NCBI GenBank assembly: GCA_029258725.1
Contig: JAPDKE010000006.1
Span: 199-64,198, forward strand
Length of the DNA stretch: 64,000 nucleotides
Source of the DNA: a bacterium
GTDB lineage: Bacteria; Hydrothermota; UBA3072; JAPDKE01
Reading direction: 5' to 3'
In this document: in pieces, positions 42,020 to 64,000 of the stretch
How the letters are laid out: the number at the start of each line of letters is the position of its first letter
How positions within the stretch are numbered: the first letter of the stretch is position 1
Program-made: the position numbers and the translations under genes
Notes under the pieces: model-generated
What the model saw: the letters and a program-made list of their open reading frames with translations, nothing else
Told to the model about the DNA's origin: nothing
Databases searched by the model: none

Positions 42020-42120
42020 TCCTTTTTTTCGGGATTTTATCGGGAAAATTCCTTTTAGTCAAGAAAGTTCTTGACATAAAATGCTGACTCTTTTAAAATC
42101 TTTTAAAAAGGGAGGTGGGT

Positions 42121-47283: not shown

Positions 47284-48890
47284 AAAAAATAGGTTTTGTT
47301 CTTCATTCCCATCTTCCCTATCTTTTGGGACACGGAACATGGCCCCATGGGGTTGAGTGGCTTTATGAGGCGGCATGTGAGACATACATACCACTTTTAA
47401 GGGTTTTTAAGAGACTGAAAAAAGAGGGAATTCCATTTGGGGTTACCATAAACTTCACCCCGGTCCTTTCCGAACAGCTGAAGGATGAAAGATTTGAAAA
47501 GGGATTCATTGAGTATCTGGAAAGCAAGATAGAATTTGCAAAAAAGGACCTTCCATTATTTGGGGAACTTGCTAAATTCTGGCTTGAGTTTTACGAAGGG
47601 GTGCTCAGGGAGTTTGAGGAGGAGAGAGATATAGTTGGGGCAATGAGGGAACTTCAGGAGGATGGAGTCATTGAAATACTTACATCCGCTGCAACCCATG
47701 GATATCTTCCTTTGCTGGGTTTTGATGAGTCTGTGAAGGGGCAGGTAAAGGAGGGGGTAAGGAGTTACAAAAAGAACTTCGGGAAAGAGCCCTCAGGGAT
47801 ATGGCCTCCTGAACTGGGATACAGACCATCATATATATGGGCTCCACATAATGGTATGCTTCCACCCAGGAAAAGAAAAGGGCTTGAGGAGGTATACCAG
47901 GAGGAGGGGATAAAATTCTTCCTTGTGGATGCCCATCTTTTAAAGGGAGGGAAACCCATAGGGACGTATCTTTCCCTTTTTGAGGGATTGAAGATTCTGT
48001 GGGAGCAGTCAGGAAGGGGAATAGAAATGGAGGAGAAGGAACTTTCCCCCTACTCAATCTATCTTGCCTCATCCGATGGTATTGCACTCCCATTCTTCAC
48101 ACGCGACCCTGAGACCGCCCTCCAGGTATGGTCAAAGGACTGTGGATATCCGGGGGATGCAAACTATCTTGAATTTCACAAGAAGCACTTTCCAGGAGGA
48201 TTGAGATACTGGAGGATAACATCCCCATCAAGGGACCTTGGAGAAAAGGACCTTTATCATCCCGAATGGGCGGAGGATTCTCTGAGAAAACATGCAGAGC
48301 ACTTCGTTTCACTTCTTTCAGGAATAAAGGGAGAACTTGTCATAGCACCCTATGATACCGAACTCTTCGGGCACTGGTGGTTTGAGGGACCTGAGTGGCT
48401 TTACCTGGTTATTAAAAAGATACACGAGCACGGAATGGGGACTGAAACACTTTCCAGAATTCTTGAGGAAAACCCTCCATCTTTGGTTCTCAGGCTTCCT
48501 GAGGGTTCATGGGGGGAGGGAGGTTTTCACTGGGTCTGGTTGAACGAGTGGACGGAGTGGACGTGGAGACATATTTATGAATGTGAAAAAAAATTCTTTG
48601 GCATGGCTGGAAAGATAAAGGGAGAACTGAAGGAGAGGATATTGAAACAGCTTGCAAGGGAACTTTTACTGCTACAGTCTTCTGACTGGCAGTTTCTGAT
48701 AACAACCTGGAGTGCAAGGGATTATGCAGAAAGAAGGTTCTGTGAGCATCTTGAGAATTTTGAGCGTCTTTATTCCTTCCTTGAGAAAGAATCCCTGAGT
48801 GCCCGTGAGGTTTCATACCTTGAGGAACTGGAATCCCGCGACTCCCTCTTCCCGGACATAAATCCTCATGATTGGCTTTCTTCTGCTTGA
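47280..48890 (+). CDS. GH57 1,4-alpha-glucan branching enzyme (DUF1957)
   Basis: LHSHLPY, ATHGYLP, WPPE, YDTELFGHWW and QSSDW. Confidence 0.93.
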   Translation: MKKIGFVLHSHLPYLLGHGTWPHGVEWLYEAACETYIPLLRVFKRLKKEGIPFGVTINFTPVLSEQLKDERFEKGFIEYLESKIEFAKKDLPLFGELAKFWLEFYEGVLREFEEERDIVGAMRELQEDGVIEILTSAATHGYLPLLGFDESVKGQVKEGVRSYKKNFGKEPSGIWPPELGYRPSYIWAPHNGMLPPRKRKGLEEVYQEEGIKFFLVDAHLLKGGKPIGTYLSLFEGLKILWEQSGRGIEMEEKELSPYSIYLASSDGIALPFFTRDPETALQVWSKDCGYPGDANYLEFHKKHFPGGLRYWRITSPSRDLGEKDLYHPEWAEDSLRKHAEHFVSLLSGIKGELVIAPYDTELFGHWWFEGPEWLYLVIKKIHEHGMGTETLSRILEENPPSLVLRLPEGSWGEGGFHWVWLNEWTEWTWRHIYECEKKFFGMAGKIKGELKERILKQLARELLLLQSSDWQFLITTWSARDYAERRFCEHLENFERLYSFLEKESLSAREVSYLEELESRDSLFPDINPHDWLSSA

Positions 48891-49885: not shown

Positions 49886-50488
49886 TTATGAGAGGAGGAG
49901 AACACCTTTAAAAACGAGGGTATCCGAGTTTGAGGCTAAGGATATAAATTCATCTAAAAAGTTGATATGATTTTCAAGTATATTCATTTGAGTAAGATAT
50001 CTTAATAAAGGCAATACCAAATTTTTGGGAGAGAACATACCCAATATGTGTCTTTTTCCCTTAATCCAATACGCTGGGGCTGTAAGTTCTATTCTTTCTC
50101 TTATATTTGTTGAAAGGTCCCAGGCGTTAGGAATAAGAAATTCTATTAGATACAGTGGGTTAATCATAAATGCAATCATATCTTTATGTTCTGATGATGG
50201 TGGTAATTGAAATTCTATAGAGAATCTTTCCCCTGCTTCAATCTCCGGTTGAAATAGTGGAGTTTCTGTATTCTTTCTTATTCTCACATTTAAAGAATCT
50301 TTTATTTTGTCAACTCTATCTAAAATTTTTTCAACTTTTTCTTTCCTTTTCTTTAACTCTTCTTCTTTCACTGCATTTAAAATCCAGCCTTCTGGCTCGT
50401 GTCCCCCGGCAATTTTTACAAGCCAGTCCCAAGTCCCCGTATCCTTTGGATTTTTTATATAGGTGTCGAGCATATCCCAGAAACTCAT
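49886..50488 (-). CDS. Hypothetical protein
   Basis: 200 aa ORF, last of a tightly spaced run; no recognised motif. Confidence 0.6.
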   Translation of the reverse strand: MSFWDMLDTYIKNPKDTGTWDWLVKIAGGHEPEGWILNAVKEEELKKRKEKVEKILDRVDKIKDSLNVRIRKNTETPLFQPEIEAGERFSIEFQLPPSSEHKDMIAFMINPLYLIEFLIPNAWDLSTNIRERIELTAPAYWIKGKRHILGMFSPKNLVLPLLRYLTQMNILENHINFLDEFISLASNSDTLVFKGVLLLS

Positions 50489-50495
50489 TTCTTCT

Positions 50496-51278
50496 CTACC
50501 TTTCTATCCATCCCAGTGTGACCGCCTCAGGATTTACATAGGCCAGGCCCTCTGGTACATCTTCTGATGAGAGGAGTTCTTGGATGGGAAGTTCTATTTT
50601 TATTTTCCCATCGGAAAGAGGATGAAGTTCATAATTCTCAAATTCTATACCCACCTCTTCATCCCATTTTCCTAATATAAGAATTACTTTCTTTATATCG
50701 GATGGTGGTGAAGATTTTATAGTGAATACAAGACGTATATCCCTTTCTGAGCGAGCATAAATCCATGGAGCCTCCTCGTTTATAGAATTTTTAGAAACGC
50801 AGTTATCCAACAGCACCTTTCGCGCCCTTTCTCTTTTTTCTCTTTCAATCTCTTCTTCAATTTTATCTTTTTTACCTCCCCGTGCAATAGCAAGTAGTTC
50901 AGCGTGCTCTTGGGAGCCAAACCCGCTTTTAATAGCAAAATAAACCCTCTTTCCAAAAAATACTCTATATTCACCTGGCTGAATATCGTCTATTAGACAT
51001 TCGTTTTCCGACAGATAGGTGGTTATTTCCTGAGGGCCTGATAATGTTATTGTAACTCCTTTTTTCTGAAGAGCATCCTGAACTTCATCAAAGACCGAGT
51101 CCATCCAAATCCAGAGATATCTTTCACGGCCTTCCCATCCCATAATAAGTCTTACTCCTTCTGGAGACGGATACATCCGAAAAAAGTCAACCCCTTCTTT
51201 AAGGGAAAGAGAAAGTCCATCAAATTTATATTTTATTTCTTTCCATATTTTATATATAAGATTCCTCTTCATCGCCAT
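50496..51278 (-). CDS. Hypothetical protein
   Basis: 260 aa ORF with GGAGG RBS, overlapping the upstream gene; no recognised family. Confidence 0.65.
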   Translation of the reverse strand: MAMKRNLIYKIWKEIKYKFDGLSLSLKEGVDFFRMYPSPEGVRLIMGWEGRERYLWIWMDSVFDEVQDALQKKGVTITLSGPQEITTYLSENECLIDDIQPGEYRVFFGKRVYFAIKSGFGSQEHAELLAIARGGKKDKIEEEIEREKRERARKVLLDNCVSKNSINEEAPWIYARSERDIRLVFTIKSSPPSDIKKVILILGKWDEEVGIEFENYELHPLSDGKIKIELPIQELLSSEDVPEGLAYVNPEAVTLGWIER

Positions 51279-52275
51279 CCTCCTGTTCTTGGTTAAGGTT
51301 TCCAGGATACAGAGGCTTCACATCCTCTTCCATTATATCCTTAATTTCCTTATCAACACCCTCTCCATATATTGATAAGGTGGTTGAGGATGGAATCTCT
51401 TTAGGAAGTTCTCCCTTCCGTTCTTCCATAAGAATATTTAGTGCATTATCGAGTGCCTCTTTCCAATTTTTAACCGTTCTTACCTGTATCCTCTTACCGC
51501 ATAACATACGAAGTTGCTGAAGATCCTGTGTTATATCTTCGTTTTTATCTAAGGCATCAAATAACCTTTTCACAACATTTACAAGTTGATCTGAAACCGC
51601 TGAAGGCGAAAAGATGCATTCCAACAAAACCCTAATGGCATCATTAATACTCCAGTGGATTAAGTCCTTAAGTTTGTTTTTCACACGCCGGGTTAGTGAG
51701 TAGATTGATGATGGTTTATCTTTATAAAATATTTTTCGAATCACATCATGTATTTGATGGATATATGTCTTTTGTACAGAAAGATATAACCCAATATCTT
51801 CCATTTTTGTATTTATATAGGCTCCAATCATTCTATCTTTCAGAAATCTATCAAGTACTGCAAGTGGATCGGGATACTCGATTCTTCGAGACAGATTGCC
51901 CTCGTCTATCTCCTTTCGGGTAGGCTCTGGCGTGCGCGGTGGAATTGAAAACTCTTCTAAATGATTTGCAATGTATTTATAAAGTTTTATTGACCCCGTC
52001 TCTACCATACGATTTAAAATTAAATATACCGCAAGTTGTACTTCAGGTGTCTTTTCAATCAAATTTTTATCATTGTCATTATAAGGAGGGCCTGATAAAA
52101 ACTGAAGTGTATTCTTTCTAAACGCCAGATTTCCTAATCTCCCATTATGACCTTTAAACATCTTCAGCCATGGCATACTTATTTCCATTTCCTCCACATA
52201 ATAGCTTAATCCTTCCAAAAGCATCCTATCTCTTTCGTTCATTTTACACCTCCCATTGTAATTAAACTCTAACAT
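51250..52275 (-). CDS. Hypothetical protein, possibly a divergent ECF-sigma-like/HTH protein
   Basis: RBS-supported ORF. KPSSIYSLTRRVKNKLKDLI weakly resembles sigma region 4.2. The CDS is credible but the function is weakly supported. Confidence 0.5.
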   Translation of the reverse strand: MLEFNYNGRCKMNERDRMLLEGLSYYVEEMEISMPWLKMFKGHNGRLGNLAFRKNTLQFLSGPPYNDNDKNLIEKTPEVQLAVYLILNRMVETGSIKLYKYIANHLEEFSIPPRTPEPTRKEIDEGNLSRRIEYPDPLAVLDRFLKDRMIGAYINTKMEDIGLYLSVQKTYIHQIHDVIRKIFYKDKPSSIYSLTRRVKNKLKDLIHWSINDAIRVLLECIFSPSAVSDQLVNVVKRLFDALDKNEDITQDLQQLRMLCGKRIQVRTVKNWKEALDNALNILMEERKGELPKEIPSSTTLSIYGEGVDKEIKDIMEEDVKPLYPGNLNQEQEDGDEEESYI

Positions 52276-52290: not shown

Positions 52291-53046
52291 TCAAGGTCTT
52301 TTTATCCCTTTGTATATTTCTACTCTGTCTGGATAAAGTTCGCCTTCCATAAATTCATATGCGTCAAGCGATGTGCCCTCTTTTTCTGCAAAGGAGATAC
52401 ACGCGTTATAAACCAGGTATTTGGGAATCAAAATATATGCCTCATCGGCCTCAATACTGTAATTTCTTAACTCTTTCAGAACCTCGGGGGTAGTAATGTC
52501 TATTTTCACGAAGAACCCAATGGGATTTTCCATCTTCCAGGTTCTCGGATTAATATCAACTCTTTCTCCTTTGACAGTATACACCCTCAGATAGTAGTTC
52601 CGGGACTGTCTTAAAACCTCTAAAGGATTGCTCCAGTGGAGATATACACTTGGAAGCCCACCTCCACCCCCTGTTCCATGTAAACTGCTCACCGGCCCAT
52701 TGGTAAATGCCTGAGTGGGGGGTGAACCTGACTTTACTGGTGGATTATTTGCTGCCTTTTTCTTTATCTCCGATTTTGTTTTGGGCTTTCCTCCTGGCTT
52801 TGTCTTTTCTGCACTTTTCGCCATCTTCTTCTTTTCTTTTCCCCTTTTTTTCTTTGCTGACTTTTCATCTTTCGGGTTTTTCTTCTTATACCTCTCTTTC
52901 ACATTTTTTTTCTTATTCTCTTCTTTCTCAATCCTGCTAATCTCTACAGGAAGACTGATTCTTTTGGTTAAAATCACCGAGGCAAAAAAGGGGAGATAAA
53001 GAAGGAGTCCTAATGCAAATCCCTTCCCCAGTACTTTCCACTTCAT
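52291..53046 (-). CDS. Single-TM protein with Lys/Pro-rich linker and C-terminal globular domain (TonB/TolA-like architecture)
   Basis: Start 53046 after GGAGG; TM segment, K/E-rich then P/G-rich linker, then a ~100 aa domain. Confidence 0.6.
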   Translation of the reverse strand: MKWKVLGKGFALGLLLYLPFFASVILTKRISLPVEISRIEKEENKKKNVKERYKKKNPKDEKSAKKKRGKEKKKMAKSAEKTKPGGKPKTKSEIKKKAANNPPVKSGSPPTQAFTNGPVSSLHGTGGGGGLPSVYLHWSNPLEVLRQSRNYYLRVYTVKGERVDINPRTWKMENPIGFFVKIDITTPEVLKELRNYSIEADEAYILIPKYLVYNACISFAEKEGTSLDAYEFMEGELYPDRVEIYKGIKRP

Positions 53047-53063
53047 TTTTACCTCCCTTCCAT

Positions 53064-53095
53064 TAAAAGAGGGGAGGGGGACATCCCTCCCCTCT
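53064..53095 (-). terminator. Intrinsic terminator-like hairpin inside the operon
   Basis: AGAGGGGAGGG-N6-CCCTCCCCTCT perfect 11 bp stem, followed by a short T-run on the minus strand. Confidence 0.65.
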
Positions 53096-53107
53096 GCTGG
53101 ATTAAAA

Positions 53108-53872
53108 TTAAAATGGATAGAACGGATCCTCGCCCTCTGTTCCATCAGGTGGAAGTTCCTCCTCCTCTTCCTTACCCATTCCTTCCTCAAGTATCGCCAC
53201 TGTGGTGAGGACAGCTTCGTCTTCATGCTGCTCAGCAAGCCTTTCATAATAACATGCCCATGCATACGCTATCATGCTCTTCACCATTCCTCTCTGATAC
53301 ATTTCAAGTAAGTGCTTCTCCCAGCCATCTCTTGAGCCTCCTCTGTTCTTCCCAAGCCAGTTTTTGATCCTGCTCACAACCGAATTTTCGGTTGCCTTTG
53401 TGATTTGCACTACAAATTCAGGTTTTATGTGTTTCAGAATCTCTCGTTTGCGGTTATCCTCATCTTCAAACTCACGGATTATCTTCCTAAGAGCTTTTTC
53501 ATATGCACTTCCATAGCGGCCTTTCACTCCGTTAAGCCATTTTTCTCTGGCCTGTTTTGCTTTTTTTCTTAAGAGTTCTGCCTCTTCTGCCTTGAGCCTT
53601 GCAAGTTCTCGATATCCGTTGGCTGCATTTTCATGTGCCTGCCTTTTGAGTTCCATTTTACTCTGCGGGTCGGAGGTTTTATTATATGCTTCTCGCAGTG
53701 ACTGAGCGGTTGCCTTATGCTCTTCAAAGACGTGCTTCTGACGTTCCTCATTTTCGTATAACCTCCTGTCGATTTCCGCCCACTCCTCCATCAACTCCCT
53801 AACTACGCTTTTACCGCTTGTAGCAGATGGGAGAATCCACAAAATACTGAGAAGAAAAAGTGCGTGGGTCAT
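53108..53872 (-). CDS. Secreted coiled-coil hypothetical protein
   Basis: Signal peptide, long charged helical segments and an acidic C-terminal tail. Confidence 0.7.
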   Translation of the reverse strand: MTHALFLLSILWILPSATSGKSVVRELMEEWAEIDRRLYENEERQKHVFEEHKATAQSLREAYNKTSDPQSKMELKRQAHENAANGYRELARLKAEEAELLRKKAKQAREKWLNGVKGRYGSAYEKALRKIIREFEDEDNRKREILKHIKPEFVVQITKATENSVVSRIKNWLGKNRGGSRDGWEKHLLEMYQRGMVKSMIAYAWACYYERLAEQHEDEAVLTTVAILEEGMGKEEEEELPPDGTEGEDPFYPF

Positions 53873-54549
53873 CTTACACCTCCGTTATGGGTTGGTGGAG
53901 TTGTAAAAAGAAAGGTGGTCTCCAGGGTCTGGGAGACACAGAAGATGTGATAAAGAAAAGAGCCCGGAGAAAATTTAACGCAAGAAGGAAGTCTGGATAC
54001 CTCCTGGTAATTTGCCTCCATCAACCTCAAAAGGAAAACGGCATCATTATACTTGAAAGTCCATTCCTCAATCTCATCACTGTGGGAAACCTCAAGAAGA
54101 TAACCGAAATCATAATCTCCTGATGGAACACTGGATATCTTTCTCATTGCCTTCTCCCATAAGGATGGGCGATTCAAAAGAAGCCCAAGGTTTGCCTGAA
54201 GAACTAAGATGCAATCAGCATCCGGAATATAGCGTCTTGCAATATCAAAGTCCTGGTATGCTCTCTGTATCAGGTTGTGGTCGTAGCATCTGTTCACAGC
54301 GGAAAGGATAAGGAGGCGGGCACGCTCAGCGTAAAGAAGCCCCTGAAGGGAGGGAGAGTAAGAGTGAACAGTGTCATCAAGAATACGGGTAAGGCATTCA
54401 ATTCCCTGCCCTCTTTCCTCGCACCTCAGGATCTGGTGAATAAGTCGGTCTCGGTCGGATGCATCTATTCTTGAGGGATGGGTGACATCCATTGTGGTGG
54501 CACAGCCGGTGAGGAGAAAGACACCAATGAGAAAAAGTTTCTTCCTCAT
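53869..54549 (-). CDS. Lipoprotein with TPR-like helices
   Basis: LTGC lipobox and LYAERARL...AYQDFDIA (TPR-like). Confidence 0.7.
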   Translation of the reverse strand: MRKKLFLIGVFLLTGCATTMDVTHPSRIDASDRDRLIHQILRCEERGQGIECLTRILDDTVHSYSPSLQGLLYAERARLLILSAVNRCYDHNLIQRAYQDFDIARRYIPDADCILVLQANLGLLLNRPSLWEKAMRKISSVPSGDYDFGYLLEVSHSDEIEEWTFKYNDAVFLLRLMEANYQEVSRLPSCVKFSPGSFLYHIFCVSQTLETTFLFTTPPTHNGGVR

Positions 54550-54573
54550 AAGCACCTCCTTTTTATTCTTTAT

Positions 54574-55497
54574 TTAAGGCAAAAACTTTCTGGTTTCCCT
54601 TTTCCTCACCCATACAACTATCTTTTTCTCAAAGTACCGCTGCTGCCCCACCCATGGGCTCCAGGACGGAAAGCAGTAGAAGAAGTAAGAGGGACGCAGT
54701 TGACCTATGTTTCCTCGCACATAAAGGGCCACCGAATCGGTGTTAACAGGGCGTAAGACACACTTGAGAATTCCAGTCTGGAGATACAACCATTTCTCAG
54801 TCCAGATCTCAATCACAAGATAGCGGGATGTTACCTGTATTCCATCCTTCCCCCAGAGCCTTGAGCCTGGTGGATATATCTTCACCTTACCATAAAGATT
54901 TGTGGATGTATCAACCACCACGACATTATTCGTGAGAACGGTCACTGTGAGATTTCCACATGTCATCGATGTAGTATTCTTGAGCGAAAGAACGACACAG
55001 AAGGGCTCTCCAGGTGAAAGTGTTTCAGGCGAAACAGAAACAATGAGAGAGGTGTGAAGGTGTTTTTCAATGAGAATTGCCGCTCTCCGTTTGGCCAATT
55101 TCACTCTTTCAAGGTATCTCAGAGCGCTGCTGTCTCTGGGGTTGGAGAAACCTGCATACAGGAGAAGGGCCTTCTTCTCATTTCCATTACATACCTCAAG
55201 ACACCACTTAAGATGTTGAATCCCTATTGAGATATTTGTCTCCGGGTCAAAAAGCTTTTGCAGATTGTAAATTCCATAGTGCCTCGCGGTTCGTGGTGAT
55301 ATCTGCATCACTCCCCTGCATCCCTTCGAAGAGACTGCATATGGTTTAAACTCAGATTCAGCCCAGGCAACCCCAATAGCAAGGGATAAGTCCACGTGAT
55401 GCTTTTTACATTCCCTCACGAAAATGTGGAAAAACGGGATTTCAACAAAGTCTGGTTGAAGAGCGGGAGGAAGATAAAAACAAAGAAATACAATCAT
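54574..55497 (-). CDS. Lytic transglycosylase (SLT domain) with a C-terminal Ig-like domain
   Basis: AESEF...AVSSKGCRGVMQI, DPETNI.IG..L and ALLLYAG; start 55497 after GGAGG. Confidence 0.88.
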   Translation of the reverse strand: MIVFLCFYLPPALQPDFVEIPFFHIFVRECKKHHVDLSLAIGVAWAESEFKPYAVSSKGCRGVMQISPRTARHYGIYNLQKLFDPETNISIGIQHLKWCLEVCNGNEKKALLLYAGFSNPRDSSALRYLERVKLAKRRAAILIEKHLHTSLIVSVSPETLSPGEPFCVVLSLKNTTSMTCGNLTVTVLTNNVVVVDTSTNLYGKVKIYPPGSRLWGKDGIQVTSRYLVIEIWTEKWLYLQTGILKCVLRPVNTDSVALYVRGNIGQLRPSYFFYCFPSWSPWVGQQRYFEKKIVVWVRKRETRKFLP

Positions 55498-55499
55498 TC

Positions 55500-55847
55500 T
55501 CACCTCCCAGTTGACATAACCGGGATACCTCCATATCGCTTGATGTTCATAAGAAAGGCGGCATAATCCTCCAGGGCAACGCCCTTCTCCCATTCAACAA
55601 GCACACGCTTGTTCTTCACCAGTTTCTTGAGTTCCTTTTCCTCTATAACCTTTCCTTTCATCTTTACCGTACCATCTGCACAAAGAAGAAGAGTGGTTGA
55701 AGACTTTCCACTGGATGCACCATATTTTGAAACATTAAACTCTATTTTCTCTCCCATCACCATTCCGATCATCAGGATAAAAGCGGTCATTACGGTAAAT
55801 AGGGGCGCCACGAAAAGGTCAAATGGGAAGGGAGGCTTGACTTTCAT
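55500..55847 (-). CDS. ExbD/TolR-like protein (atypical)
   Basis: N-terminal TM, L..DGTV..G..I...EL, then VLVEWEKGV..Y...M..IK..G (ExbD-like periplasmic domain). Confidence 0.7.
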   Translation of the reverse strand: MKVKPPFPFDLFVAPLFTVMTAFILMIGMVMGEKIEFNVSKYGASSGKSSTTLLLCADGTVKMKGKVIEEKELKKLVKNKRVLVEWEKGVALEDYAAFLMNIKRYGGIPVMSTGR

Positions 55848-56233
55848 GTCTTCTCCTCCTGCTGTGTATTGGTGAGGATTTTGAGGTCAAGAATCACATC
55901 CTCTATATAAGAGAATACGGTGAAAATTATTCCAACCACGGACGAGTACATCGCATGCTGGGTGCCTCTGAAGAGGTTGTAAAGCATGCCGTTGAGGTCT
56001 AATCCGCTCATTGCCTTAAAGCCCTCACAGATTCCCAGGAAGGTTCCAAGGGCTCCAAGAGGGATATAGGAGACAGCCATGGCGTAGATAAGAGAAGAAA
56101 GGAAACCGTCGGATTTACCTCTGCGAATAAACTCATAGATGGCAACCTGATGAATGCCGAGAAAGATACAGAAGACAGGAAGCGTTGGCCCGATTGCTAG
56201 GTGTATGATTTTGAGAATAAATAGAATACGCAT
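55844..56233 (-). CDS. Short MotA/TolQ/ExbB proton-channel family protein
   Basis: PLGALGTFLGI..F and G...AMYSSVVGI match the family TM2/TM3 motifs. Confidence 0.75.
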   Translation of the reverse strand: MRILFILKIIHLAIGPTLPVFCIFLGIHQVAIYEFIRRGKSDGFLSSLIYAMAVSYIPLGALGTFLGICEGFKAMSGLDLNGMLYNLFRGTQHAMYSSVVGIIFTVFSYIEDVILDLKILTNTQQEEKT

Positions 56234-56235
56234 GA

Positions 56236-57666
56236 TCACCTCCTTTGGATTCCGTAGTATTTAATAGGGAAAAAAGTTGCGTAAACCCTTTCATAAAGCA
56301 CCTGAAAAAGAAGGCGTAAAGGGTAGTTTCTCTGGAATGTGACAATCCACTCATCGCCATATTTTTTGTAAGGAGAGGCAAGGACCGGTATGCACCTTAC
56401 ACCTGTCTTCTTTATTCTGAGCCATGTATCAAAGGAAGGATAGAGAAGGATATAGGTATTTCCAGGTTCAATTTTATCTTTATAGGTAATCCATCTCAGC
56501 CCCATATCCTCCAGAATCTTTCCCTGATATGGATTCTTCACCACCACAACCGTGTTTTTCATATCGAGAGGATACCGGAGACAAATTCTTACACCCCTTC
56601 TCAGTGTTTCTCTTTTAAAATCCCCTGCATACGCAGTATCCACCTTTATAAGCCCATTTCTTATCTTGCACTTTATAATCCTCAAAACCGCCTCATCCAC
56701 ATTTTTTCTGAATCTTGAGTCAGTCTCGTAGCAGGAGGTAAGATAGTGAATAAGTTCGCCAGGGTCCACTTTTACACCGTATCTTGATATTAAAATCACA
56801 TCCATTCCAGCAAGAATTGCCATCCGCACCACCCTGTGCATGGGATATCTCACAGCATGCATACACATATCGTCCGTTATAAGAACAACCTCATCTCCTG
56901 CAAATTCTCTCAATATCTTTACCGCCCAGGGAGAAAGAGTTGCAGGAAGCGTGTCAAAATCCATTATCTCCAGATGCCCCACCATCACCATATCAACCCC
57001 GAGAAGCACGGCAAGTTTAAATGCCTCAAGTTCTCCTTTCTCAGGAATTATTACAGGAAGAGTTCTGTGTGAGTCCTTGGAGGAACTGCCATGTCCGGGC
57101 CAGTGCTTTACACACGCCATAACTCCCGCAGAGTGAAGCCCCTGAATAAAAGCAACCATATGAGGAACCACCCGTGAATATCTATCGCCAAAGGAGCGGG
57201 TTCCGATTATAGGATTTTTCGGATTTACATTGATGTCCCCAAGAGGAGCGAGAACGAGATTGAATCCCAGTTTCTTAACGAGTTTACCGGTGAGATAACC
57301 CGCATACTCTGTTATATCCCTCTTGTTAATCTCCCCAAGCATTGCAGGAGCAGGGAGTGGGGGATACTGGTAAACGGGCGCCACATCCCCACCTTCCTCG
57401 TCAATCGCGATAAAAAGAGGGATAGGGGACAGTGTATGGAGATAATTGAGTGTCTCAGGTACCATATACCTCCGGTTTTTCTTGAAAAGAATTATACCTC
57501 CTATGGGAAATTCACCGATTTCCTTTTTCAGTTGAGCAAGAGAATCAAAACCAAGAAGAAGCATCTGGGCAATTTTATCCTCGGGTAACATTCCGGATAC
57601 AATCTCCCTTGCTTTTCTATCAACCACATATGGATTTAAGAGGACAGAAAAAAGAATGTAAGCCAT
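56236..57666 (-). CDS. nagZ: GH3 beta-N-acetylhexosaminidase (NagZ-like)
   Basis: IAIDEEGG, NP.IGTRSFG, KHWPGHG, DSH dyad and ITDDM nucleophile. Confidence 0.88.
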   Translation of the reverse strand: MAYILFSVLLNPYVVDRKAREIVSGMLPEDKIAQMLLLGFDSLAQLKKEIGEFPIGGIILFKKNRRYMVPETLNYLHTLSPIPLFIAIDEEGGDVAPVYQYPPLPAPAMLGEINKRDITEYAGYLTGKLVKKLGFNLVLAPLGDINVNPKNPIIGTRSFGDRYSRVVPHMVAFIQGLHSAGVMACVKHWPGHGSSSKDSHRTLPVIIPEKGELEAFKLAVLLGVDMVMVGHLEIMDFDTLPATLSPWAVKILREFAGDEVVLITDDMCMHAVRYPMHRVVRMAILAGMDVILISRYGVKVDPGELIHYLTSCYETDSRFRKNVDEAVLRIIKCKIRNGLIKVDTAYAGDFKRETLRRGVRICLRYPLDMKNTVVVVKNPYQGKILEDMGLRWITYKDKIEPGNTYILLYPSFDTWLRIKKTGVRCIPVLASPYKKYGDEWIVTFQRNYPLRLLFQVLYERVYATFFPIKYYGIQRR

Positions 57667-57801
57667 AACCTCCTCCTTTTTTAAAGAAATATAGGGAGAA
57701 ATTTTTTATTGATATTTCATTTCCAATTTGTAAAAATGAAAAAAGAAAGAAAGAGATATGATGCGAAGAAAAATTGTTAGCAGTAGAAAAGGAGGTATAA
57801 A

Positions 57802-59091
57802 ATGCTCCTTGAAAACTATCGTGTAGCAAAAACTTTCTGGAAAATAGCGAAGGGTATAAGAGAAAAAGACATAAGAAAATCTATCCTCTTCTTCCAGGCC
57901 GGAAAGAGAATCATTACATGCCCTCGCCCATTTCAGGAAGAGGATAAATCCCTTTTAAGGCTGGAAAATGGGATTCTTAACCGGGCATATCAGTTCCTTA
58001 ACGGAACAATCCCGGAAAAATACAGGAAGTACATAGTAGATAAGAATGGATATCCTATGTGGTGTGATAATGACAAAATTTCTCCACTTCTTCAACAGGC
58101 AATAGAAGAGGGTGTGCCTGAGTTGACTGGGCTTGTCTATCCTTTTGCTTCAAGAATCAAAGAAGAACTGCTTCATGCTGAGGAGATTGAAAGGGTAAAA
58201 ATCAATGGCATTAACAAGGAAATTACTGGAAAAATCGTGTTTTTATGTCAGGTAAAGAGAAGGCCATGTATCCAAGAAATCAAGGGAATGGTAGTTGAGA
58301 AAAAATGCAACACACGGTGGATAGGAAGAATCCGGGGAATAGAAATCCCCTGTGAGATTGTATTTCTCTCCCCAGAGGAATGGGGGGAGACCGAAGATAG
58401 TTTTTCTCTCCAAGGAGACTTGCATGTTCATTCTACCTGGTCTGATGGGTTTAATTCTCTGGAGGAAATAAAATTACATGCCAGGAAGCTCGGGCTGAAA
58501 TACGTTGCAATTACTGACCATTTGGGAAGAAAAAAGGATGAAGATGATACAGCTTTGGAGGAAAAAAAGAAACGTCTTCTGGAACGTAATCGTGTTATTG
58601 AGAAACTTAATAAAGAGGGAGAAGTAAAACTTTTAAAAGGTGTGGAAGTGGATATCGACCTTGATGGGCATCTTGTTTGTGAAGATGAGGCGTTTTTCAA
58701 AGAATTTGATATCATAGTTGCGGGGATTCATTTTAAGGTATCAGAGAACAGGATTGGACGGATAGTGAAAGCAATGGAATATCCATTTGTGCATGGAATT
58801 GCACACCCTGTAAATCGAGACCTCTTCTTCAATCATGTGGGAATCACATTTAATGAGGTTGAGAAAATCTTTAAGGCGGCTGTTCAGCGCAACAAATGGG
58901 TTGAGATTAATTGTGATTTTAACCGGTTTGAACCCCCGCTGGAATATATCCGGATGGGAAAAAGAATGGGAGTAAAATTTTATCTTGGAACAGATTCCCA
59001 TAGTTTATGGATGATGGGTTTGGTATTCCCGGCACTGGCATGGCTTCGCAGTGTCCTTTCCCCTACCGATTTGGTGAATAACTCCATATAA
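57802..59091 (+). CDS. PHP-domain protein derived from PolX, with a degenerate polymerase part
   Basis: GDLHVHSTWSDG, ITDH, GVEVD, IAHP, EIN and GTDSH. The N-terminus resembles the PolX N-domain, but the DxD is not recognisable. Confidence 0.8.
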   Translation: MLLENYRVAKTFWKIAKGIREKDIRKSILFFQAGKRIITCPRPFQEEDKSLLRLENGILNRAYQFLNGTIPEKYRKYIVDKNGYPMWCDNDKISPLLQQAIEEGVPELTGLVYPFASRIKEELLHAEEIERVKINGINKEITGKIVFLCQVKRRPCIQEIKGMVVEKKCNTRWIGRIRGIEIPCEIVFLSPEEWGETEDSFSLQGDLHVHSTWSDGFNSLEEIKLHARKLGLKYVAITDHLGRKKDEDDTALEEKKKRLLERNRVIEKLNKEGEVKLLKGVEVDIDLDGHLVCEDEAFFKEFDIIVAGIHFKVSENRIGRIVKAMEYPFVHGIAHPVNRDLFFNHVGITFNEVEKIFKAAVQRNKWVEINCDFNRFEPPLEYIRMGKRMGVKFYLGTDSHSLWMMGLVFPALAWLRSVLSPTDLVNNSI

Positions 59092-59354
59092 AGATTGTTA
59101 TGATATTTTGCTCCTTATCAAAAGGCCTGATTATTTTACATTCAGTGTTCTGGGAGATAAAAGTCCTGGAGAGATCATCCAGTAGCTACCTATCTCCTTG
59201 AAATCCCTTTCTCTCCACCTATAATCCTGGACGATGTCATTGAAGAAATGAGAAAAACTGGAATGTGAGGAAATCGGTCAACCTCCTGTTGAGTAGATGC
59301 TTGACATCTTGTTCTCGTTCTGTAAGAATAAATAGGGAAAAAAAGGAGGAAAGG

Positions 59355-59906
59355 ATGAAAAAGAGATTGTCTCTTACCGTGAAGAAAGTTTTAAATACGG
59401 TTTCTCTTCTTACTCAGGAAAACATAAAAGCAAATCGGGAGATTATCCATGAAATTGTGTATCTTTCCCTTCCTTCCCATGCGCGAAAAAAATATTACAC
59501 AGCAGGCCTGGAAGGTCCTTACAGTGAAGATGTTGACCTTCTAATCCAGGGTCTTCTTTATAAAAAATCGCTCCGATATGAGAATGGATTTAAGGCCGAG
59601 ACAAATGGTACTCCTGATAGAAGAGAGAAAGTAACCGTTGAGTTTTTGAAAAAGCATCATCTCCTTCAGCATGACAAACTCGCAGAATTCTCCCGGGTTT
59701 TCATGTTTTTTGATGAACTAAAAGACAAAAAAGAGGAGGAACTGGTAAACTATATTAAAAAAAGAAGCAAATTTCTTGGATGGACAGACCTTTCCAGGAA
59801 GACCAAAAATGTGATTTTGAGATATCTCAAATACGCTCGCGAACTGGAGAAGGAGTTAAAGGGTGCATCTTCTGGAAGGATGGGAAATAGAGACTCTTCC
59901 AGTTAG
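59355..59906 (+). CDS. Winged-helix-like protein with GPYS motif (YwgA/SocA-Panacea-like)
   Basis: AGGAGG-supported ATG at 59355; IHEIVYL...YY...GPYSEDV...L; overlaps the HD gene. Confidence 0.55.
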   Translation: MKKRLSLTVKKVLNTVSLLTQENIKANREIIHEIVYLSLPSHARKKYYTAGLEGPYSEDVDLLIQGLLYKKSLRYENGFKAETNGTPDRREKVTVEFLKKHHLLQHDKLAEFSRVFMFFDELKDKKEEELVNYIKKRSKFLGWTDLSRKTKNVILRYLKYARELEKELKGASSGRMGNRDSSS

Positions 59907-61260
59907 AGACCCTATTTACAATTTCATTGAAATACCGCGGGAATTTATCTCTCTTATTGACTCTGAAATATTTCAGAGGTTAAGATGGATTTCTCAAACT
60001 CCACTGGAACAACTTGTGTATCCGTCGGTGGCTCATTCCAGGTTTGAACATAGTCTGGGAACCATGTATCTTGCGATGACTGCCGCCGTAAGCCTTATCA
60101 GAAACTCCCCAGCAAGGCTGGAGGCAATACTCAAGGAAGATGATGCATTTAGAAGTTTATCTCCAAAGGAAAGAGAACGGCAATTTATTCTCTCAGCCGG
60201 GGCTATTGGGTTACTTCACGACCTTGGGCATCCTCCATTCAGTCATGCTCTGGAAGAAGCATGTGAGTACATATTTGAGGATGAGAAGCATTTTTATAAC
60301 CATGAGATAGTTTCGTATTATTATGCACGGATATTATTGAGACAGAAGAAAGTGAAGACCACACCATGGGGAGAAAAGGCATTGAGTGTTTTAAAGAATA
60401 AAAAGTCAAAGGAGAAGATTAAGCTCTCTCCCGTTGAAAATCTCCTGCTTACCCTTATAGACGGGCCTATTGATGTTGACAAAGGGGATTATCTTTTAAG
60501 GGATAGTTATCATTGTGGAACCACCTATGGCCTTTATGACAGAGATAGATTGTGGAGAAATATTATAATTACCAAAGACAACCAGCTTGGAGTGCATCCA
60601 AAAGGAGCGGTAGAGGCATGGGCATTGAGAATAGCACGGTATAGACTGGGAACGGGTGTTTATCAGCATCATACACGAAATATAATAGATGCCATGCTTA
60701 TTGATATACTCTGTGGAATAAAGGAAGAATGTCTTCCATTAATAATTCCTGATTACAGAAAAAAGGAGAAATTTCTTGGCTGGACCGAACATACATTTCT
60801 GAATGCACTCATGGAGGCTGGAGACCGTAGAACCAGAAGAAAGGTTGAACGATTGAGAAAAAGGGAACTTTATAAAAGAGGTTTTGAGATTAATTTGATT
60901 GAATTTCCTGAACTGCTCATAAAAGAGACGGTAACACAGGTAAAAAGAGACCTTCTCTTCTGGAAAGACTCCCTTTCTTCCAGGGTGAAGGATAAGATTA
61001 TTTTCCTTGTAGATAGAATCCCTATACCTCCTGTATTTGAAAAGGAGGTCCAGAAGGAAATAATAGTTGAAGAAAATGGTAATGAAAAACCGCTTGCAGA
61101 GTATCTTGGATTTAAGTTAGAGGAGACACAAATTGTTTCGTGCCCCTGGAGAATTTTTATATTTGTTGACAAAGATTTGAAGGATAACAAAGAAATCCTG
61201 GAAGGGATAGAAAAAGACCTGAGAGAATACCTCGAAAAAATCTCCAAGCCTCTCTCTTGA
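59863..61260 (+). CDS. HD-domain dNTP triphosphohydrolase-like protein (YwfO/SAMHD1 family)
   Basis: RDPIY, FQRLR.I.Q, HSRFEHSLG, LLHDLGH.PFSH.LE, HE, DVDKGDYLLRD and VYQH. Confidence 0.9.
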   Translation: MHLLEGWEIETLPVRDPIYNFIEIPREFISLIDSEIFQRLRWISQTPLEQLVYPSVAHSRFEHSLGTMYLAMTAAVSLIRNSPARLEAILKEDDAFRSLSPKERERQFILSAGAIGLLHDLGHPPFSHALEEACEYIFEDEKHFYNHEIVSYYYARILLRQKKVKTTPWGEKALSVLKNKKSKEKIKLSPVENLLLTLIDGPIDVDKGDYLLRDSYHCGTTYGLYDRDRLWRNIIITKDNQLGVHPKGAVEAWALRIARYRLGTGVYQHHTRNIIDAMLIDILCGIKEECLPLIIPDYRKKEKFLGWTEHTFLNALMEAGDRRTRRKVERLRKRELYKRGFEINLIEFPELLIKETVTQVKRDLLFWKDSLSSRVKDKIIFLVDRIPIPPVFEKEVQKEIIVEENGNEKPLAEYLGFKLEETQIVSCPWRIFIFVDKDLKDNKEILEGIEKDLREYLEKISKPLS

Positions 61261-61285
61261 CAGAAATTTCTTAATTTTTTATTAT
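61257..61285 (+). promoter_or_regulatory. Sigma70 promoter, leaderless configuration for the CHAT-NACHT gene
   Basis: TTGACA(61257)-N17-TATTAT-tttacc-ATG(61292), with no SD. Confidence 0.7.
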
Positions 61286-61291
61286 TTTACC

Positions 61292-64000
61292 ATGTGGGTA
61301 TTTGAGGTGAAGTTAAGGATTGAAAAAGATGGGAAGTTAACGAGAAGGTATTTTCTGGGGGAGGAGGAGAAGTTTGTTTTCAGTGATAGTTTATGGGAAA
61401 AAGAAGAGATAGAAAAAGATATTGACGATTATTACGAGGCTCTCAAAAAGGGAAATACACCTGCGACGGATAAACTCGGTGTTCTCATTTATAAACTTTT
61501 ATTCCCTCTCCCTGCGCTTCACAGGTTATTTATGGATTATTTCAATGACTGTGGTTCTGGTAATTTTCTTTTCCTGGTGGATATTGAGGAAGAAAATGAA
61601 CTTTTGATAAAAATTCCCTATGAACTTGCAGGATGGGGCTCTCTCAATATTGATAATCTGGAGGAGGAGTTATACCCTAACGCCTTTTATGGAGTTTATC
61701 CCGGGATACCCATTGAGAAGAAAAGATACAGATCCTTTCCAGACCGGTCTCTTTCGTGTGATACCTCCATGGTATTTGCCCGCAGGAGTCATAATCGGGA
61801 TGTAAACCTGGTGGAAGTTGAAAAGTTGCGGATTCTTATTCTTCGGTCCTCGGAAGGAGTTCCTTATGATGCAAGGGAAATAGGGATTTTCAAGAACATT
61901 GAGCAGGCGGTGGAGGAGAGGATTGAGAAGATTGAAGAAAAGGAAATCTTGTTTTCCACATCTGAGGCTGTAAGACAGGTCATTGAGGATAGCAAACCCC
62001 ATGTGCTTCATGTGATTTCTCATGGTGAAGGAAACGGAAGGATAGGAAATATGGCTCCCAAGGAGTGGGCCGAGATTTGTGAGGGTATTTCAATAGTTTT
62101 CTTTTCCTGCTGTCATGGGCACATACCTGCCTTTTATGCCTCCAGGTTCTGTGGTTGTGCCATAGGGGTTAAGGGAATTGTGGATGGGCGTATGATTGCG
62201 AAAGATGCTGGAGTCTTTTATAGTAACTTGCTTACTTCTTCACATCCTCAAGCACTTTATGATGCATTGAGAAAAACTTTAAAAGGAGATATTTATACCG
62301 TTTATCTCTCCCCCCGTGCCCTCAAACTCTTCCTCTGGCCCGAGGAGAGGGTGGAGAAGAAATTCAGGGAAATGATGAGAGATTATGTATCTCCATTGAA
62401 AATGGAGACTAAGTTGTATTCAGGGAGGCTGGAGGATGTGTACATTAAAAGAGAACTGGAGGAAAAAAGAGAAGGGAAAGGAAGGCTTGAGGTTAGAGAA
62501 AGAGATAAAGCATTTCCAGGGAAAATACCCGAAGCCCCTTCTGAGGTAATCGCAGATGAAAAATTGATAGGGGAATTGAAAAAGAGCAGGGGTAGGTTTG
62601 TGATTTCTGGTGCAATGGGCTCCGGAAAGACGATGCTTTTAAAATATCTGGCTTTAAGGCTGTCCTCAGATTCTGAAGCGGTTCCCATTTATATTTCCCT
62701 TCCATCTCTTGACTTAAAATCTTCAGACTTTATGAATGCTGTTGAGATATATGTGAAGGAGCATCTTTCTAAGAAAAAGGAAAAGGAGATTTTATGGGAA
62801 GAAGTGATACTGAAAAAGGGGATATTTCTTCTTGATGGTTATGATGAACTTGGAAAAGAGGAAAGACGAAAACTCAATGAGATGCTGGTAAGAAATGAGG
62901 CATTAAAAATTCGCCCTCTCGTGATTGCTACAAGACCCGAGTATGAAGGAGAGTTAAAGAAAGACTTCAGGATTTTGAAAATGCGTCCTCTCAAAAACTG
63001 GAAAGAGGGAGTGGAGAAGTATATAAAGGATGAAGAAAAAAGAAAGAATTTTATTGAAGAGATTGAAAAACGAAAAAAGCATTATGTTTCTTTGTTTGAA
63101 ACCCCTCTTTTTCTTGCTATTTTGTGCATAGTTTATGAAAAAAATGGGTGGTTACCTTCCACATGGACAGAGTTGATAAGGGTATATGTTGAATCATCTA
63201 TCAGGGATTGGCCTGAGGAGAAAGGGAGAGATAAAATTGATGATATCGGATATAAAAAACTCATTAAAGTGCTTTCCGAGGTTTCTTTTGAGTATTTTAA
63301 TGAAAAAATATTGCCTGAAGAGGATTTAATGCAAAGGATGGAAGAAAAGGGCGTTAAAGAGTTTAAGGATTATATAAGGGGGATACTTGTTCCTTTGCGG
63401 AAAATGGAAGAGTACAGGGTAAGGGTTTATTACTCTTTCATTCACGATGCCTTTCTTGAATGGTTTTGTGCCCTATATTTAAAGGAAAATGGATATTTGG
63501 AGTTTCTTAAGGAAAATTATTATCGTCCCGAATACCGAAATGTGTTTATTTTTCTTTCTGGTTTGCTTGAGGATGCGACAGAGATGGTGGAGTTCCTTGA
63601 AGAGAATGGAGCGGTTGAACTTGCGGCATATTGTGTAAGGGAGGGAAAGGTTAAAAAAGAGGTTATTGATAAAGTTGTTAATGACCTTATGGAACTTGTG
63701 AGGATGGAGATAAAATGCGAGGATAATCTTCCCTGGCTTCGTGATGCAGTGTTTGCGGTGAGGGAGCATGTTAAGGTAAAAGATGACTGGGATTTAGGCC
63801 TAAAACTGAGGATTGCCGAATATATTTCCTCGCTGGATGGACTACAGAAGATATTTGAAGAACATAGAGACAAAGCTTGTGTTGCAAAAGATGTTGCCCG
63901 GGCTCTTGGTGAGATTGGTGAAAAGGAGGGATTAAATGTGCTTAAGGGAGTATTTGAAAAACATGGAGATAACCCTGATGTTGCCGAGGCTGTTACCTGG
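61292..64000 (+). CDS. CHAT protease - NACHT NTPase - HEAT-repeat protein (STAND/NLR-like), truncated by the window end
   Basis: Not in the ORF track. Frame from ATG 61292 (903 codons to the window end): IPYEL, PHVLHVISHG and IVFFSCCHG (CHAT His/Cys); GAMGSGKT, IFLLDGYDE, IATRP, ETPLFL and FIHDAFLEWFCA (NACHT); ARALGEIG (HEAT). Confidence 0.88.
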   Translation, partial: MWVFEVKLRIEKDGKLTRRYFLGEEEKFVFSDSLWEKEEIEKDIDDYYEALKKGNTPATDKLGVLIYKLLFPLPALHRLFMDYFNDCGSGNFLFLVDIEEENELLIKIPYELAGWGSLNIDNLEEELYPNAFYGVYPGIPIEKKRYRSFPDRSLSCDTSMVFARRSHNRDVNLVEVEKLRILILRSSEGVPYDAREIGIFKNIEQAVEERIEKIEEKEILFSTSEAVRQVIEDSKPHVLHVISHGEGNGRIGNMAPKEWAEICEGISIVFFSCCHGHIPAFYASRFCGCAIGVKGIVDGRMIAKDAGVFYSNLLTSSHPQALYDALRKTLKGDIYTVYLSPRALKLFLWPEERVEKKFREMMRDYVSPLKMETKLYSGRLEDVYIKRELEEKREGKGRLEVRERDKAFPGKIPEAPSEVIADEKLIGELKKSRGRFVISGAMGSGKTMLLKYLALRLSSDSEAVPIYISLPSLDLKSSDFMNAVEIYVKEHLSKKKEKEILWEEVILKKGIFLLDGYDELGKEERRKLNEMLVRNEALKIRPLVIATRPEYEGELKKDFRILKMRPLKNWKEGVEKYIKDEEKRKNFIEEIEKRKKHYVSLFETPLFLAILCIVYEKNGWLPSTWTELIRVYVESSIRDWPEEKGRDKIDDIGYKKLIKVLSEVSFEYFNEKILPEEDLMQRMEEKGVKEFKDYIRGILVPLRKMEEYRVRVYYSFIHDAFLEWFCALYLKENGYLEFLKENYYRPEYRNVFIFLSGLLEDATEMVEFLEENGAVELAAYCVREGKVKKEVIDKVVNDLMELVRMEIKCEDNLPWLRDAVFAVREHVKVKDDWDLGLKLRIAEYISSLDGLQKIFEEHRDKACVAKDVARALGEIGEKEGLNVLKGVFEKHGDNPDVAEAVTW

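Follow-up and report, generated by a model that had tools for sequence, protein, structure and literature searches.

The Tol-Pal system promotes septal glycan cleavage and the tol-pal operon of some species contains a lytic transglycosylase gene; how motors of the Tol type promote the cleavage of glycan strands, and whether the proton-motive force is needed for it, is posed as an open question in the part of PMC7391070 devoted to it. In this work, we are describing a run of seven co-oriented genes (57666-52291, minus strand) located in a 64,000-nucleotide stretch of a Hydrothermota genome (G000:C13:199-64198), hereafter called the window, in which a NagZ-type GH3 enzyme and an SLT lytic transglycosylase are encoded together with a minimal membrane motor of the MotA/ExbB type. 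We propose, at a probability of roughly 0.4, that this module controls local glycan cleavage in the manner of Tol, powered by protons, with its seven genes forming one accessory envelope operon to which both enzymes belong. The module is extremely rare and, as judged from gene content, stands outside Tol-Pal, Ton and Zorya.

Parts of this architecture are known from other systems. The transducers TonB and TolA possess a transmembrane (TM) helix carrying an SHLS motif with its His (PMC10666116, PMC12204202, in the parts describing the helix), and the transducer motor box, or D-box, is a Pro-flanked beta-strand placed just past this helix (PMC10907165, PMC12204202, in the parts describing the box). 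Section 8 of PMC12204202 gives a TM2 Thr (or Ser) and a TM3 Thr as the channel-lining residues of the MotA/TolQ/ExbB family, and presents vWA-type motor-driven force transducers encoded with TolQ-like, TolR-like and TPR genes. CpoB is introduced in the same source as a coiled-coil and TPR protein, ancestrally a lipoprotein (PMC12204202, in part).

Comparison with the described systems

The described systems nearest to the module are Tol-Pal with CpoB and the non-canonical transducers that accompany divergent TolQR-like genes. Like Tol-Pal, the module has a MotA/ExbB-family protein, an ExbD/TolR-like protein with an Asp in its TM helix, and a third inner-membrane protein in which a long, charged linker leads to a globular end; its helical and lipoprotein components recall CpoB, and the link to peptidoglycan cleavage is common to both. 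It differs from Tol-Pal in having neither TolB nor Pal, in its Q-like protein of 131 aa (against ~210-230 aa), which lacks the whole cytoplasmic domain, in an A-like protein with no SHLS His and with a C-terminal domain giving no TolA/TonB match, and in having SLT and GH3 built into the operon. Moreover, Tol-Pal is widespread, whereas only two or three lineages yielded the module.

With Ton of its own genome the module shares the superfamilies of the two motor subunits and the three-part logic of motor, axle and transducer. Two canonical ExbB-ExbD(-ExbD)-TonB_C clusters are located at C7:12114-13677 and C26:14764-16832, and their products match Pfam at E 1e-30-1e-31 (MotA_ExbB), 1e-23-1e-25 (ExbD) and 1e-10-1e-15 (TonB_C). 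In the case of the window proteins, the ExbD and TonB_C models give no match at E up to 1, MotA_ExbB remains below its cut-off, and no receptor gene belongs to the module. Because both canonical clusters are already present in the genome, we regard the seven-gene module as a third, aberrant motor. The vWA-type transducers end in a vWA fold and many keep the SHLS His, while our module shows no vWA match and no such His; their clusters, for which section 8 of PMC12204202 describes no peptidoglycan hydrolases, differ in this respect too from a module with SLT and GH3. Zorya ZorAB offers the hidden Markov model (HMM) closest to the membrane core of the MotA-like protein, and a short TM1-TM2 spacing and island-like settings are found in both; the 70-nm cytoplasmic tail, the peptidoglycan-binding domain of ZorB and the ZorC, ZorD and ZorE proteins, as presented in part of PMC11946911, are all lacking in the module.

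No described system with this content was found by a full-text literature search for NagZ, ExbD and lytic transglycosylase, which did not extend to the supplementary operon tables of PMC12204202, and the operon matches none of the systems treated in the portions used here of a Tol-Pal review, a force-transducer survey and the Zorya paper. The claim of a first-pass annotation of this DNA, that hydrolases are packaged with an undescribed Ton/Tol-like motor, holds as a genomic statement, and its functional part is a hypothesis.

Layout of the seven-gene run

The source genome (2.1 Mb, 53 contigs, 95% complete) is the sole member of its family in the genome set used. All seven co-oriented open reading frames (ORFs) announced by the first-pass annotation are present and their junctions are tight. 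The GH3 stop codon overlaps the start of the MotA-like gene, whose stop is in turn overlapped by the ExbD-like start by 4 nt; the ExbD-like gene stops at 55500 and the SLT ATG follows at 55497. A gap of 18 nt separates SLT from the lipoprotein gene, the lipoprotein and helical-protein genes overlap by 4 nt, and 61 nt precede the last gene, encoding a protein of TonB/TolA layout. Start and stop codons overlapping or nearly abutting throughout are consistent with the single operon that we propose. For four of the seven proteins families could be assigned. Neither Rfam families nor tRNAs were found near the unit, and promoter and terminator scans of the locus gave results at shuffle level.

OmpA-family and TolB_N matches do not occur within the run; the OmpA matches of the genome are on C9 and C3, and a weak TolB_N match is on C38. 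The absence of a TonB-dependent receptor, TolB and Pal, claimed earlier, is true inside the run, while for the window as a whole it fails with respect to the receptor: a TonB-dependent receptor gene (42115-44016, plus strand, ORF of 633 aa) is situated ~8 kb from the operon in a separate transcription unit. Downstream of it there are three ORFs and then a GH57 branching enzyme (47280-48890).

A minimal MotA/ExbB-type subunit and its ExbD-like partner

The putative stator subunit of the MotA/ExbB/TolQ/ZorA type (55844..56239, minus strand) has 131 aa counted from a GTG, or 129 aa from an ATG at 56233. Its three hydrophobic helices cover residues ~4-38, 46-71 and 99-122, with ~8-12 residues between the first and the second and ~10-20 residues after the third. 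Since it contains neither an ExbB/TolQ-type cytoplasmic domain nor a ZorA-type tail, the protein amounts to the membrane core alone. The window protein itself scores 17.9 bits (E 0.0026) with Pfam MotA_ExbB (PF01618), under the cut-off of 22.9. A HMMER pass over 1.84 billion representatives returned four matches, three of them real relatives: P0001, 95% identical and from the same species, P0002 (38% identity, linked at E 1.3e-12, recorded on a 36-kb contig) and P0003 (34% identity, linked at E 4.2e-7, on a 1,009-nt contig). The fourth, the repetitive P0004 (694 aa), was discarded as spurious. P0002 and P0003 reach 32.3 and 27.6 bits with Pfam MotA_ExbB, above its cut-off, and the hhalign comparison of the four-member profile with nine canonical ExbB/TolQ proteins gives 92.8% probability (E 3.9e-7) over the TM2-TM3 hairpin. 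On the strength of these two results the protein of ~129 aa noticed at first pass is, by homology through its relatives, a member of the MotA/ExbB family. In 75 other genomes of the phylum, the HMM of this small family also matches TM2-TM3 of canonical frames that are 154-377 aa long (E 1e-5-1e-2).

In ExbB and TolQ the channel is lined by a Thr or Ser of TM2 and a Thr of TM3. The TM2 motif GxxG(T/S)FLGI is kept in our family (GALGTFLGI in the window): Gly62, Gly65 and Gly69 never vary, Thr occupies position 66 in three of the four members and Ser does so in P0003, and Ser99/Ser100 align with the canonical TM3 Thr-Thr. No further relatives came from a word-based search (one match among 31 candidates, confined to self, near-self or the second locus L017 described below) or from a scan of the genome collection (27 pattern stretches, 0 relatives), and phmmer against PDB with the MotA-like and ExbD-like proteins gave only rows at E 0.55-0.8.

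The adjacent gene (55500..55847, minus strand) encodes a protein of 115 aa with an N-terminal TM helix at residues ~7-33, in which Asp10 is invariant between the window and the L017 orthologue, and with a small periplasmic domain. Owing to its position, size and topology we consider it quite likely to be ExbD-like, as had been claimed before. The Atlas search agrees, with a score of 0.92, 172 shared features and 25 of 30 matches in ExbD-carrying sets, whereas the profile support is weak: the window protein has no Pfam match at E up to 1 and no PADLOC match, its L017 orthologue meets Pfam ExbD (PF02472) over the whole length at E 0.11 only, hhalign with 11 canonical ExbD proteins yields 35% (E 4e-4) in the expected register, and an HMM built from three canonical ExbD sequences gives the small ExbD-like proteins at most 3.3 bits. 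An OmpA-type peptidoglycan-binding domain is absent from the 115-aa protein, which is too short for it.

The TolA-layout protein and accessory periplasmic proteins

The last gene of the run (52291..53046, minus strand), most likely starting at 53046, encodes 251 aa arranged as a TM helix, a Lys/Pro-rich linker of ~100 residues (29% Lys, 9% Pro, pLDDT <50) and a C-terminal domain of ~120 aa, for which an AlphaFold model of the domain alone has pLDDT 75. The protein is 29% identical to its L017 orthologue (hhalign 96.8%). Thus the TonB/TolA layout reported at first pass was recovered as far as the TM helix, the linker and the folded end are concerned, and did not extend to the TM His or to a TonB_C match. 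Directly after the TM helix both orthologues show, by eye, alternating hydrophobic residues past a Pro (P-VEISRIE in the window, SG-VMVKVE in L017), which look similar to the motor box, with no strand in the isolated model. When two periplasmic domains of the ExbD-like protein were predicted as a complex with TolA-layout residues 24-62, the score was 0.25 against a mark of 0.32; this prediction, run without controls, speaks neither for nor against binding. The full-length model gave only single-helix fold matches, the Atlas search with the C-terminal domain only unnamed clusters with scores <0.9, and the word-based search two matches among 5188 candidates (self, near-self or L017 only).

Two exported proteins are encoded between SLT and the TolA-layout gene. 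The first (53869..54555, minus strand) is a helical lipoprotein of 228 aa with one hydrophobic signal segment and the lipobox LLTGC. It belongs to no family in Pfam, NCBIfam or PHROG; its L017 analogue matches TPR_2 at E 0.013, under the cut-off, and of the former label "TPR lipoprotein" only the second word could be verified. The other (53108..53872, minus strand) is a highly charged helical protein of 254 aa with the hydrophobic N-terminus MTHALFLLSILWILPSATSG, a mature part made up to 38% of Glu, Lys, Arg and Gln, and no family in Pfam or NCBIfam. It had been called a secreted coiled-coil protein; its secreted, charged and helical character agrees with that, and the coiled coil could not be verified (6 of 227 windows in a crude heptad count).

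The GH3 and SLT enzymes

In E. coli, the periplasmic SLT-family enzyme Slt produces anhydro-muropeptides, from which the cytoplasmic GH3 enzyme NagZ removes GlcNAc. The two E. coli genes are unlinked and no motor is needed, whereas the enzymes of our module are neighbours of a motor and carry extra C-terminal domains.

The first gene of the run (56236..57666, minus strand) encodes a beta-N-acetylhexosaminidase-like protein of 476 aa, which matches Pfam Glyco_hydro_3 (PF00933) over residues 29-332 at E 1.7e-48 (166 bits) and is followed by an extra C-terminal domain of ~135 aa. With the NCBIfam equivalogue model of beta-N-acetylhexosaminidase (NF003740) it gives 118.8 bits, under the cut-off of 207. 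The stretch KHWPGHG....DSH, common to the window and L017 proteins, follows the pattern KHxPGHG....DSH, which we take to be the signature of NagZ-type enzymes. Because the equivalogue cut-off is missed while PF00933 and this stretch are present, we retain the former name "NagZ-type" and do not call the protein a NagZ equivalogue. A strong ribosome binding site, AAAGGAGGAGG, ahead of the ATG fixes the start, and as there is no signal peptide behind it, the enzyme is probably cytoplasmic. It is the sole match to PF00933 in the genome. Within the phylum, 19 of 272 genomes including the source genome contain a GH3 match (E 1e-20); the other 18 are at most 38% identical and do not have the C-terminal domain. 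A scan of the genome collection for this GH3 subfamily found six loci, at most 33% identical and covering the catalytic domain only, with no module genes in their 10-kb flanks.

The lytic transglycosylase gene (54574..55497, minus strand) most likely starts at 55497, giving 307 aa, because a near-identical contig (L016) shifts frame upstream of this point and the called proteins have the same length. The SLT catalytic domain (PF01464, E 1.6e-19, 70 bits against a cut-off of 21.3) includes the stretch AWAESEF...GVMQI, whose AWAESEF holds the catalytic Glu-Ser motif, and is followed by a beta-rich C-terminal domain of ~165 aa. This is again the only match to its family in the genome. SLT matches (E 1e-8) occur in 62 of the 272 phylum genomes including the source genome, the other 61 covering the catalytic domain alone, and in none of 25 genomes of the same class. 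The C-terminal domain belongs to no known family and has no homologue past one 99% identical copy (one of 138 candidates in a word-based search); in the earlier designation "SLT-Ig" the first half is sound and the "Ig" label could not be verified. Lineage-specific extra domains that occur solely with the module suggest that both enzymes are part of it, as our proposal would have it.

Distribution and a second locus

Scans of species-representative genomes revealed no further relatives of the module, and neither did scans of viral contigs (98 and 101 pattern stretches, 0 relatives). A metagenome contig of the same species, L016 (98.6% nucleotide identity), is not independent. An independent locus is provided by the 8.4-kb contig L017. 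Its genes are ordered lipoprotein (cut by the contig end), secreted charged helical protein, TolA-layout protein, second secreted helical protein, MotA-like, ExbD-like and two unknown proteins, followed on the other strand by an NtrC-type regulator and a GH3 orthologue; the position of SLT would lie beyond the contig end. GH3 is 46% identical to that of the window over 461 aa including the extra domain, and the MotA-like, ExbD-like and TolA-layout proteins are 36%, 28% and 29% identical. These four genes lie within 8 kb in an order different from that of the window; hence they were kept together through rearrangement, and the genes of the run are co-inherited elsewhere at least to this extent. 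The lipoprotein and secreted helical proteins stand at the same relative positions as in the window and recur as types only. The downstream unknown proteins of both loci show no significant similarity by BLASTP or single-sequence hhalign.

Two of the L017 genes have no counterpart in the operon of the window: directly after the ExbD-like gene a protein with a weak Sigma70_r2 match (L017:3261-4136, E 0.003), and between the module and GH3 the NtrC-type sigma-54 activator (L017:4804-6210).

Genomic setting

The last 263 nt of L017 (8122-8384) are 96% identical in DNA and 98.8% in protein to G000:C17:17037-17299. This shared stretch is the 3' end of a PP-loop ATPase gene, the likeness halts at its stop codon, and a DNA comparison with 40 other relatives gave no match to the segment. 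The junction is bridged by an independently assembled contig of one run, which may be the source sample. This suggests that in a close relative of the source genome a far diverged form of the module is located at another site, unless the bridging contig is likewise chimeric, and on account of this near-identical end the module looks flexible and island-type.

The core operon has a G+C content of 0.41-0.46, compared with 0.446 for the genome, and is flanked on both sides by low-G+C DNA (0.345-0.39 in three unknown cytoplasmic genes, 0.39-0.40 in PHP, HD and NACHT genes). An imperfect inverted repeat of 28 nt brackets the seven-gene core almost exactly; its left arm (52221..52248) is 86% complementary to the right arm (57737..57764), which is placed in the divergent intergenic region upstream of GH3. 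Compared, by our own scoring, with 150 random 9.7-kb windows of the source genome, the repeat falls near the 95th percentile, which is borderline unusual, and no other copies occur in the genome at up to 5 mismatches. Taking together the L017 junction, the flanking DNA and the bracketing repeat, the module looks like flexible-genome DNA and not like a housekeeping system of the phylum.

Proposed mechanism and alternative explanations

In the mechanism which we propose, of the Tol kind and not that of Ton import, the MotA/ExbB-type and ExbD/TolR-type proteins would form a stripped-down proton-driven stator in the inner membrane. We infer stator assembly, coupling and the action on SLT, as well as, from TM Asp10 and the TM2 Thr/Ser, a 5:2 stoichiometry and the use of protons. 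The stator would drive the inner-membrane-anchored Lys/Pro-rich protein reaching across the periplasm, a step to which the layout, the synteny and the beta-prone stretch just past the TM helix point; the novel C-terminal domain of this protein may then engage one or more partners among the lipoprotein, the helical protein and the SLT C-terminal domain. Cleavage of glycan strands would thereby be confined to the places and times at which energy arrives from the motor, and the GlcNAc-anhydroMurNAc fragments would subsequently be trimmed by the NagZ-type GH3 in the cytoplasm, because products of lytic transglycosylases are NagZ substrates. A bolder version, which we find rather unlikely, would make the module a self-contained, horizontally mobile glycan cutter, in which a miniature 5:2 proton motor, pared down to the membrane core, mechanically gates SLT through a new type of periplasmic transducer; it would constitute a third functional class beside Ton (import) and Tol (outer-membrane tethering), and populations closely related to each other would have far diverged alleles of it at different genomic sites.

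If a minimal motor is indeed hard-wired to a lytic transglycosylase, the question of Tol-promoted cleavage would become testable with seven small genes. The 131-aa subunit would mark a lower size limit for a MotA/ExbB-type stator and be useful for asking what the cytoplasmic domains do. A transducer-like protein with neither the SHLS His nor a TonB/TolA domain would add to the evidence, laid out in part of PMC12204202, that the range of envelope proteins driven by 5:2 motors extends beyond Ton and Tol.

A number of observations weigh against a Tol-like controller of glycan cleavage. As regards the motor, the top HMM match of the MotA-like protein is PADLOC ZorA2 (E 5e-8, 30.4 bits, residues 23-111, TM1-TM3), and the canonical Glu of ExbB TM3 aligns with His95 in the window and with Gln in P0002. 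The TM His of the SHLS motif is missing from both TolA-layout orthologues, which keep a Ser (S23), and a genome-wide TonB_C (PF03544) scan at E up to 1 picked out four other genes and not this one. Nothing at Z>=5 was found for its C-terminal domain among 48,161 chains, the top VIA fold match being the ToxR periplasmic domain (Z 3.5, 56 aligned residues, rmsd 3.6), and Foldseek returned nothing below E 0.13 (PDB) or 0.2 (BFVD). With respect to the enzymes, neither AnmK (PF03702) nor a MurQ equivalogue (TIGR00274) was found in the 95% complete genome, for which reason classical recycling of anhydroMurNAc after the NagZ step seems incomplete. A true MotA-like orthologue is present in the source genome only and absent from the other 271 genomes of the phylum, neither the lipoprotein nor the helical protein has detectable homology to its L017 analogue by BLASTP or single-sequence hhalign, and L017, cut inside its lipoprotein gene, ends before the place of SLT. 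Finally, both the ZorA2 match and the position between low-G+C islands suit a conflict system no less than a role of the housekeeping type.

Such a conflict system, that is an anti-phage defence or an envelope-damage sensor in which the minimal motor would sense perturbation of the envelope, is in our opinion unlikely. Apart from ZorA2, three NCBIfam ZorA models match the MotA-like protein, each weakly, and the patchy distribution (three relatives among 1.84 billion, one of the 272 phylum genomes) would suit it, as would deep allelic variants at different sites, if the 28-46% identical L017 version beside DNA 96% identical to C17 is read in this way, and low-G+C flanks with HD/dGTPase-like and NACHT STAND NTPase genes. 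Its output would have to be periplasmic, for instance SLT activation leading to wall repair or abortive lysis, in contrast to the cytoplasmic tail of Zorya, and if true it would represent a Zorya-like sensor acting in the periplasm. However, the MotA-like protein ends ~10-20 residues past TM3 with no ZorA tail, its 115-aa partner has no room for a peptidoglycan-binding domain, and the operon holds no ZorC, ZorD or ZorE-like effector or other PADLOC match (the other operon proteins scanned, namely the 115-aa, TolA-layout and three downstream proteins, match nothing there); the genome-typical G+C of the core and the lack of relatives in viral contigs likewise argue against it. We give slightly less credit to a third, dedicated Ton-type energiser for the uptake of peptidoglycan fragments or glycans, with SLT and GH3 merely catabolic and not motor-driven. 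The genome is that of a diderm with eight TonB-dependent receptor matches, including the one ~8 kb from the operon, its two canonical clusters indicate that motor paralogues are in use, and a GH3 cytoplasmic by its N-terminus would fit as the catabolic end step. Yet neither module locus contains a receptor gene, the transducer C-terminal domain is not TonB_C by Pfam, and the genome has no AnmK or MurQ equivalogue with which to use anhydroMurNAc. Furthermore, the substrate of lytic transglycosylases is the polymeric sacculus, in the periplasm of the cell itself.

It could also be that GH3 and SLT, as a peptidoglycan-turnover pair, share an operon by chance with a divergent motor to which they are unrelated, and that no mechanism is common to them. 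Of the seven genes, four alone are demonstrably kept in L017, where GH3 is on the opposite strand, 3.4 kb from the motor genes and with a regulator between, and the loci may come from close relatives, so that the shared content could partly reflect ancestry. We consider this explanation improbable, since the genes stay clustered despite rearrangement and only 28-46% identity, their overlaps in the window are of the translational-coupling type, and the extra domains of both enzymes are restricted to the module. A phage-type lysis cassette, with the roles of holin and antiholin played by the small membrane proteins, that of endolysin by SLT and those of spanins by the lipoprotein and a membrane protein, appears very improbable: the small membrane proteins, the lipoprotein and the TM protein fit it superficially, and the SLT domain matches phage lytic PHROGs at E 8.7e-15-1e-13, but it is the only domain with a PHROG match below E 0.001 (the helical protein reaches E 0.004, and for the eight remaining proteins of the scan there is nothing <=0.01). 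Furthermore, the family of small membrane proteins scores above the Pfam MotA_ExbB cut-off, no phage structural genes are nearby, the viral-contig scans gave no relatives, and the lipoprotein and helical protein have their own signal sequences, unlike spanins.

Neighbouring genes

Downstream of the run there are three co-oriented genes (49886..52275, minus strand) for cytoplasmic proteins of 341, 260 and 200 aa, with G+C of 0.345-0.39. They belong to no family in Pfam, NCBIfam, PADLOC or PHROGs and are not homologous to the genes found at the equivalent place in L017. A promoter-like site precedes them (52294-52266), in a scan that overall was at shuffle level. We regard the three genes as a probable island of their own and doubt that they are members of the unit.

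On the other side, divergent low-G+C genes (57802-64000, plus strand) encode a PHP-domain protein (429 aa), an unknown protein (213 aa), a protein with HD and HD_assoc_2 domains (465 aa) and a NACHT STAND NTPase of at least 902 aa, which runs off the window. No system-level defence match was obtained for them. The description of the run as standing back to back with a defence cluster is accordingly right about divergent, island-flavoured genes, while the defence matches themselves are weak, with PADLOC giving dGTPase at E 1.4e-6 for the HD protein and E 0.002 or weaker for the others.

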